A stretch of 352 bases of DNA from Escherichia coli (lineage in GTDB: Bacteria > Pseudomonadota > Gammaproteobacteria > Enterobacterales > Enterobacteriaceae), in assembly GCF_003334335.1 (NCBI RefSeq), contig NZ_QOWQ01000209.1; one strand, written 5' to 3'. A program made the position numbers and the translations under genes. This document shows positions 1 through 352 of this stretch, one piece after another. Below the pieces are notes generated by a model that was not told where the DNA came from, searched no databases, and saw only the letters and a list, made by a program, of their open reading frames with translations. Every line of letters begins with the position of its first letter. The first letter of the stretch is position 1.

Positions 1-130
1 GCGTCACCCTGAACTGATGTTCCGTCACCCGGAAAACGAGTACGACTGGCTGAGCTCAGACGCCGCTGTGGATGAGGTCCTGCTCATCAACGAATACACC
101 TTTACCGAAGCCGGTCTGCGCGCCGGCTGA
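1..130 (+). CDS. 3' end of an upstream ORF, 5'-truncated by the window edge; product not recognised (hypothetical protein). Codon phase starts at nt 2; TGA stop at 128-130.
   Basis: Frame 2 is the only + frame open across 2-127 (42 codons: RHPELMFRHPENEYDWLSSDAAVDEVLLINEYTFTEAGLRAG*); frames 1 and 3 hit stops within the first 20 nt. In K-12 CP4-type islands the gene immediately upstream of the antitoxin is a small DUF987 ORF (yeeT/ykfH), but this C-terminus does not resemble what I recall of those proteins, so the family is left open. Confidence 0.55.
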   Translation, partial: RHPELMFRHPENEYDWLSSDAAVDEVLLINEYTFTEAGLRAG

Positions 131-152
131 CCCGTCATCGTTAAACTATCAT
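127..152 (+). promoter_or_regulatory. Weak candidate sigma70-like promoter: -35-like CTGACC (127-132), -10-like TATCAT (147-152), spacer 14 nt (suboptimal).
   Basis: Hexamer resemblance only (4/6 and 5/6 to consensus) at a position that would give a ~25-30 nt leader for the downstream GTG start. The short spacer makes this speculative; the downstream gene may instead be co-transcribed with the upstream ORF. Confidence 0.15.
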
Positions 153-167
153 TCACCGATTTTCTGT

Positions 168-172
168 GAGGA
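168..172 (+). promoter_or_regulatory. Shine-Dalgarno / ribosome-binding site (GAGGA) for the downstream CDS
   Basis: GAGGA at 168-172 lies 7 nt upstream of the GTG at 180-182, which is canonical spacing, in an AT-rich leader. Confidence 0.7.
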
Positions 173-179
173 TTTTATC

Positions 180-352
180 GTGTCAGACACACTTTCCGGG
201 ACAACGCATCCCGATGACAATGACGACCATCCCTGGTGGGGACTACCCTGCACAGTGACGCCCTGTTTCGGCGCCCGTCTGGTGCAGGAGGGTAACCGCC
301 TGCATTACCTTGCCGACCGCGCCGGTATCAGAGGCCTGTTCAGCGATGCAGA
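180..352 (+). CDS. cbeA: N-terminal part (57 codons) of a CbeA/YeeU-family antitoxin (YeeU/YafW/YfjZ family, cytoskeleton-bundling type IV antitoxin); 3'-truncated by the window edge
   Basis: GTG start at 180 preceded by a GAGGA RBS; the frame stays open to the window end. The translation matches, from recall, the N-terminus of E. coli YeeU/CbeA (MSDTLPGTT..PWWGLPCTVTPCFGARLVQEGNRLHYLADRAGIRG.FSDAD) with a few substitutions, and contains the GARLVQEGN.LHYLADRA core shared with YafW and YfjZ. The gene symbol denotes family membership; this may be a paralog rather than the K-12 yeeU locus itself. Confidence 0.85.
   Translation, partial: MSDTLSGTTHPDDNDDHPWWGLPCTVTPCFGARLVQEGNRLHYLADRAGIRGLFSDA

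Follow-up and report, generated by a model that had tools for sequence, protein, structure and literature searches.

Positions 180 to 352 of the 352-nt stretch of Escherichia coli DNA analysed here, the whole of which is called the window, are very probably the 5′ part of an intact cbeA gene belonging to a cbeA-cbtA pair at the distal end of a tRNA-Leu island, a pair that would work in the manner known from K-12 and that is preceded by the relic of a deleted gene. CbeA/CbtA is the founding type IV toxin-antitoxin system. At this locus the antitoxin gene is identified together with its start codon, its product is an intact 122-aa protein in identical loci, a toxin gene follows 89 nt downstream of it, and the pair is set in a genomic island (Table 1).

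Table 1. Coordinates of the features in the window and in the loci compared with it (L001, locus of E. coli O26:H11 11368)
Feature	Location	Strand	Evidence or remark
DUF987 (yeeT-like) gene, 3′ end (...VTLN, stop TGA at 15-17)	window 1-17	+	RefSeq WP_000692345.1 ends at L001 12017 = window 17
Relic: last 37 codons and stop of the 214-aa gene	window 18-130	+	alignment to the intact STEC307 gene
Untranslated leader of the antitoxin gene, with Shine-Dalgarno GAGGA at 168-172	window 131-179	+	sequence reading; GAGGATTTTATCGTG invariant in 10 diverged copies
CbeA/YeeU-family type IV antitoxin gene, first 57 codons (GTG start)	window 180-352	+	PF06154; 2h28; RefSeq WP_001315620.1
CbtA-family toxin gene	L001 12638-13012	+	PF06755
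Block of DUF905, DUF932, antirestriction, RadC/JAB, DUF987, CbeA, CbtA, DUF5983, DUF957	L001 9550-13706		
tRNA-Leu gene	NC_013361.1 5523962-5524046		island boundary
Tyrosine integrase	NC_013361.1 5524210-5525472		next to tRNA-Leu, far end of island
Intact 214-aa gene, strain STEC307	L003 2469-3113		
Further 214-aa family loci	L014 6001-6645; L015/L016 6001-6645		
DUF987-cbeA spacer of K-12 CP4-44	L005 2952-3024		

The antitoxin gene and its toxin partner

The open frame that begins with the GTG at position 180 runs to the end of the window as 57 codons and two further bases, with the translation VSDTLSGTTHPDDNDDHPWWGLPCTVTPCFGARLVQEGNRLHYLADRAGIRGLFSDA, and 196 bases of the 122-codon gene lie past the window end. 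The preliminary description of this DNA had taken the translated N-terminus for a near match to YeeU/CbeA and had proposed a profile or protein search as a check. That search returned a significant YeeU/CbeA family match (PF06154, 2h28), far beyond chance even for the fragment, whose residues 18-56 align to positions 1-39 of the Pfam model CbeA_antitoxin (PF06154, E 2.8e-18) and which shares 53 of its 57 residues (93%) with K-12 CbeA. The full-length antitoxin, taken from a 100% identical locus, covers positions 1-100 of the 101 in the same model (E 5.6e-53). In phmmer comparisons with solved structures it matched the YeeU entries 2h28 (E 3.7e-76) and 2inw (E 2.2e-74) far more strongly than the YfjZ entries 2ea9/2jn7 (E 4.8e-40 and 6e-40), and it is therefore assigned to the CbeA type and not to the YfjZ/YafW type. 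RefSeq record NC_013361.1 likewise annotates a 122-aa "type IV toxin-antitoxin system YeeU family antitoxin" whose start coincides exactly with window position 180. RadC was the only protein here to match an NCBIfam model; the antitoxin, its toxin partner, DUF987, DUF5983 and the 37-aa reading frame discussed below matched none, and this silence is not evidence against the identification, because PGAP evidently names these proteins from Pfam-type models. Nor did any PADLOC defence-system model match the antitoxin, its toxin partner or the 214-aa protein described below.

The position of the start codon deserves separate attention. The Shine-Dalgarno sequence lies 7 nt 5′ of the GTG, within a leader string that does not vary among diverged copies (Table 1). 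An in-frame ATG at window 72 would make the antitoxin 36 residues longer, and the frame is indeed free of stops from 72 to 180 in this window; however, in-frame stops break this extension in four of the seven copies of the same architecture and in one of the three copies with an intact 214-aa gene, the region is deleted in K-12, it is the pairing of GAGGA with GTG 180 that is invariant instead, and residue 1 of the short form lies ahead of the point where the Pfam domain and the solved structures begin. The longer form is thus barely credible, and it was dropped on account of the stops in homologues, the open extension being a chance feature of this allele. Position 180 is kept as the annotated start, since the extension is broken in related copies and absent from K-12. 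Downstream of this start, the variable sites of cbeA among seven diverged copies fall at first, second and third codon positions in the proportion 3/10/19, a third-position bias that points to purifying selection.

The preliminary description had also predicted a CbtA-family toxin gene directly downstream, and such a gene is present. In the O26:H11 11368 locus a coding sequence for 124 aa on the plus strand begins 89 nt past the antitoxin stop, and its product spans the whole of the Pfam model CbtA_toxin (PF06755, E 1.1e-61, model positions 1-112 of 112) and shares 109 of 124 residues (88%) with K-12 CbtA. The further statement that the toxin gene directly follows the antitoxin gene in every known occurrence holds at this locus and fails as a universal rule, as YagB is an orphan antitoxin (PMC5371832) and the 214-aa gene stands between the two genes in Klebsiella michiganensis. 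The toxin keeps F65 (in ...DAVNFLVEKY...), the residue required for FtsZ binding in CbtA, YpjF and YkfI (PMC5624674). Its position 15 is a cysteine, and the R15 that contributes to MreB binding in K-12 CbtA is not present; YpjF and YkfI also carry C15, and YpjF nonetheless binds MreB (PMC5624674). As these relatives show, the residue at position 15 is not family-defining, and the MreB targeting of this toxin may differ in detail from that of K-12 CbtA. The Erwinia CbtA does not behave like its E. coli counterpart (PMC6521040), and therefore family membership alone is no guarantee of the same targets.

The region upstream of cbeA and the 214-aa gene family

The first 17 positions of the window are the tail of a DUF987 gene, whose full protein matches PHROG 14887 (E 2.6e-37). 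What follows is the remnant of another gene. Database records whose match to the window begins only at position 18 have a gene for a 214-aa protein between DUF987 and cbeA, and alignment to the intact gene of strain STEC307 indicates that about 550 bp are missing from the window. The deletion junction at 17/18 joins the last 37 codons of this gene straight to the DUF987 stop codon, and in doing so it creates an apparent ATG at 17-19 (TGA|TG). The relic nature of positions 18-130 was not noticed in the preliminary description. Among 5,426 complete E. coli genomes, the junction of the window type occurs at 4,246 places in 3,029 genomes, the 5′ part of the intact 214-aa gene at 2,831 places in 1,962 genomes, and the K-12-type junction at 2,805 places in 2,530 genomes. 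Seven copies that differ from one another by up to 12% all share the window-type junction together with the substitutions next to it (MFRH...), which argues for a single ancestral deletion.

The same diverged copies bear on the fate of the remnant. Its variable sites are distributed 8/9/5 over the three codon positions, so that the first two positions account for 17 of the 22 and there is no third-position bias, and its stop codon is kept in six of the seven copies and lost in one. Because this pattern differs from that of cbeA and one copy has lost its stop, the relic is considered to be drifting rather than to be a maintained small gene. One could suppose instead that the 37-codon frame at 17-130 encodes a small protein that has a function and whose translation is coupled to that of DUF987 by the TGATG overlap, as its ATG overlaps the DUF987 stop codon, the frame is open with a stop in six of the seven diverged copies and the junction is very widespread. 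Yet the deletion junction formed this ATG by accident, the substitutions show no codon-position bias, one copy is without the stop, no family matches were found, the frame is annotated in none of the RefSeq records inspected, and it is absent from both the K-12-type and the intact-gene architectures. A coupled small protein is accordingly very improbable, and the frame was dropped as a candidate gene on the strength of its codon-position pattern and its origin at the junction. Positions 18-130 are, as this pattern of change indicates, a non-functional scar of the deleted 214-aa gene. More than half of complete E. coli genomes have an unannotated 162-nt "spacer" 5′ of cbeA, which is hence explained as a deletion scar, and the 37-codon ORF should not be called as a gene.

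Microhomology was looked for at the window-type deletion junction, and none that was convincing was found. The junction is flanked by the two copies of an 8-nt direct repeat, CGTCACCC, the first in the DUF987 tail (2-9) and the second in the relic (23-30). The intact 214-aa gene reads CGTCAACT at the site of the second repeat copy. Both copies being retained, the repeat does not explain the deletion, and its occurrence around the junction may be due to chance. In the CP4-44 element of K-12 the 214-aa gene has been lost by a different and independent deletion, which kept its first ~25 nt (ATGAGCAGAATTATCGCCACTACCG).

The family to which the deleted gene belongs, of which WP_001774605.1 is an intact example, is large, with 1,650 homologues that include members in Salmonella, Klebsiella and Citrobacter and reach into Alphaproteobacteria (Tistrella, Stappia), where identity to the E. 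coli protein is ~60%. Searches of the 214-aa protein gave no match in Pfam, PDB sequences or PADLOC, and its PHROG matches were only to families of unknown function. Its AlphaFold model is confident (pLDDT 87.7, pTM 0.80), with no convincing relative among solved structures. NCBI names the protein "antitoxin of toxin-antitoxin stability system", a name for which no supporting evidence was found, and a literature search on it gave nothing specific. The gene order is DUF987, 214-aa gene, CbeA, CbtA in E. coli and DUF987, CbeA, 214-aa gene, CbtA in Klebsiella michiganensis. In Tistrella the 214-aa gene lies between ParB/DUF736 and a relaxase, and CbeA/CbtA are not nearby. Some E. coli carry the 214-aa protein fused in frame to CbeA in a product of 342-343 aa (e.g. 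P0019, 343 aa) with the junction ...LRAG-LPEDFI-VSDK..., and these fusions apparently arose from a small deletion in which the stop codon was lost along with most of the leader between the genes. From its three positions, before cbeA, between cbeA and cbtA, and fused to CbeA, it could be proposed that this gene, with its confidently predicted fold and no solved relative, is a third functional partner of the CbeA/CbtA module, a proposal that we regard as rather unlikely. The simplest reading makes it a leading-region accessory gene of mobile elements. If the partner reading were true, the at least two independent deletions of the gene might mark a switch in toxin control. The family is in any case widespread and uncharacterised, which makes it a reasonable target for students of these modules.

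Island context and the probable working of the pair

By megablast, 4,785 of 5,426 complete E. coli genomes contain a match to the window, with a median of two and a maximum of 12 places per genome. The sequence is 100% identical in E. coli O26:H11 11368 and in at least 24 other chromosomes among the matches listed, O103 and O145:H28 included. In the 11368 chromosome it belongs to an island of ~60 kb, rich in IS elements, which starts ~57 kb 5′ of the window with a tRNA-Leu gene and, after it, a tyrosine integrase. The cargo comprises P4-like genes (psu, ogr/delta, icd-like, primase), the fec operon and many IS elements, and the antitoxin-toxin pair lies at the distal end, where the island stops before nanC and fimB. 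Genes 5′ of the pair encode a GTPase, Ag43, an IS600-disrupted gene, IrmA, DUF905, DUF932, antirestriction, JAB/RadC (matched by TIGR00608, E 1e-43) and DUF987, and those 3′ of it DUF5983, DUF957 and a truncated DUF4942. The conserved block is thus found inside an element that a tRNA gene and an integrase delimit, as expected of a CP4-like, tRNA-associated island, and the window is assigned with confidence to a tRNA-Leu island of the O26/O103/O145 type. The preliminary description had suggested a horizontally acquired island or cryptic-prophage module and had named the flanking genes to be sought. The element turned out to be a composite tRNA-Leu island and not one of the three K-12 cryptic prophages, and DUF987, RadC-like/JAB, antirestriction, integrase and tRNA genes were all found, with DUF932 and DUF905 in addition. 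The island is eroding, in that a hypothetical gene is split by IS600 (L001 5133-8940). Likewise, 3′ of DUF957 a truncated DUF4942 gene borders directly on a piece of an HTH regulator gene (L001 13791-14044).

How the pair works can be proposed by analogy with its K-12 orthologues, to which the antitoxin is 93% identical over its first 57 residues and the toxin 88%. The K-12 toxin targets the H6/H7 loop of FtsZ and the double-filament interface of MreB (PMC5624674), and the same source describes K-12 CbeA as interacting with FtsZ and MreB and stabilising their bundling without binding the toxin, and as protecting also against unrelated FtsZ inhibitors (PMC5624674). On this model the toxin of the present locus would bind FtsZ at the H6/H7 loop and MreB at the flat double-filament interface, so that cell division and elongation would both be blocked, and the antitoxin would, without toxin binding, bind the FtsZ and MreB polymers and promote their bundling, which would offset the toxin. 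A second source likewise cites experiments on K-12 CbeA for neutralisation without toxin binding, and it reports that YafW, YfjZ and CbeA each neutralise all of the three K-12 toxins and that the operon lacks autoregulation (PMC5371832). A promoter consensus scan from the RadC gene to DUF957 found no sigma-70 promoter on the plus strand, and its one minus-strand match, against 1.8 expected, was treated as chance; a terminator-like hairpin lies 3′ of the DUF957 gene. As there is no consensus promoter in or near the window and a hairpin follows DUF957, the pair is probably co-transcribed with the upstream genes, and transcription from further upstream is plausible, the sequence weakly suggesting it. 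An Rfam search of 2.3 kb at a permissive threshold returned only a chance snoRNA match (E 0.83), with no known RNA element or RNA antitoxin.

Two other readings of the pair's role have to be weighed against this K-12-like mechanism. The pair may be a silent passenger, both genes being intact and yet without a present host role in a decaying island. Such a reading would fit the IS600 insertion, the truncated hypothetical genes and the truncated DUF4942 nearby, the deletion of the gene directly 5′ of cbeA down to 37 codons, and the report that in K-12 the antitoxins can be deleted, together with the proposal of poor expression for the toxin genes (PMC5371832). It is nevertheless unlikely, because the antitoxin and toxin frames are both intact, the variation of cbeA is third-position-biased, the module is so widely and repeatedly present in the genomes searched, and phenotypes in oxidative stress and biofilm have been reported for K-12 deletions.

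The other reading holds that the antitoxin acts wholly or partly otherwise than by bundling, for instance through conjugative type IV secretion into recipient cells, the module then serving a "leading region" function of mobile elements rather than addiction. It would fit a screen in which 32 chromosomal E. coli proteins, CbeA, YagB and YfjZ among them, were recovered as Cre fusions translocated by the F-plasmid (F-like) type IV secretion system (PMC11288057), and the neighbouring antirestriction, RadC and DUF932 genes and the 214-aa family (next to ParB and relaxase in Tistrella) are typical of conjugative leading regions. Translocation was, however, rare, at about 1e-7 to nearly 1e-5 per donor, with each antitoxin found once in the screen (PMC11288057), and the neighbourhood of this copy is devoid of conjugation genes. 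CbeA is moreover reported to bundle in vitro and to neutralise unrelated FtsZ inhibitors (PMC5624674). A link of CbeA-type antitoxins to conjugation is possible, and that the present antitoxin works by this route in place of, or beside, bundling is improbable. The K-12-like mechanism remains the reading we prefer.

Comparison with known systems

Compared with K-12 CbeA (YeeU, from CP4-44; structure 2h28), the antitoxin of the window has in common the Pfam family PF06154, the length of 122 aa, the GTG start and the ribosome-binding site, and the two proteins are nearly identical over residues 1-121 (E 3.7e-76), the window copy differing by four substitutions in its variable N-terminal tail. Both loci have a spacer of ~89 nt to a 124-aa CbtA toxin, which reads C15 at the window locus and R15 in K-12, and both have the upstream order Ag43 ... 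RadC-like, DUF987. The elements themselves differ, since the window island is set at tRNA-Leu, lies by nanC/fimB and has an integrase, whereas CP4-44 is integrase-less. They also carry different deletion scars between DUF987 and cbeA, and it is owing to the relic that this spacer measures 162 nt in the window as against 73 nt in K-12.

The remaining relatives are more distant. YfjZ (CP4-57; 2ea9, 2jn7) and YafW (CP4-6) have the Pfam family and a partner of the same toxin family in common with the window gene, but the match is far weaker (E about 5e-40, against 4e-76 to CbeA), their N-termini are shorter, and their toxin-antitoxin spacer is 20 nt where the window type has ~89 nt. YagB (CP4-6) belongs to the same protein family and is without a neighbouring toxin gene, whereas the window gene has an intact one. 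To judge from the defining features that can be read in sequence, every one of which is present, the gene of the window is a CbeA/YeeU member in a canonical cbeA-cbtA pair, and no result speaks against this identity. The system is already known, as the preliminary description had stated; identical loci are annotated in RefSeq, correctly and at these very coordinates, and the allele is carried unchanged by many E. coli genomes. What is new in comparison with the systems described before is a single detail, namely that the "spacer" before cbeA is the tail of a deleted neighbour gene.
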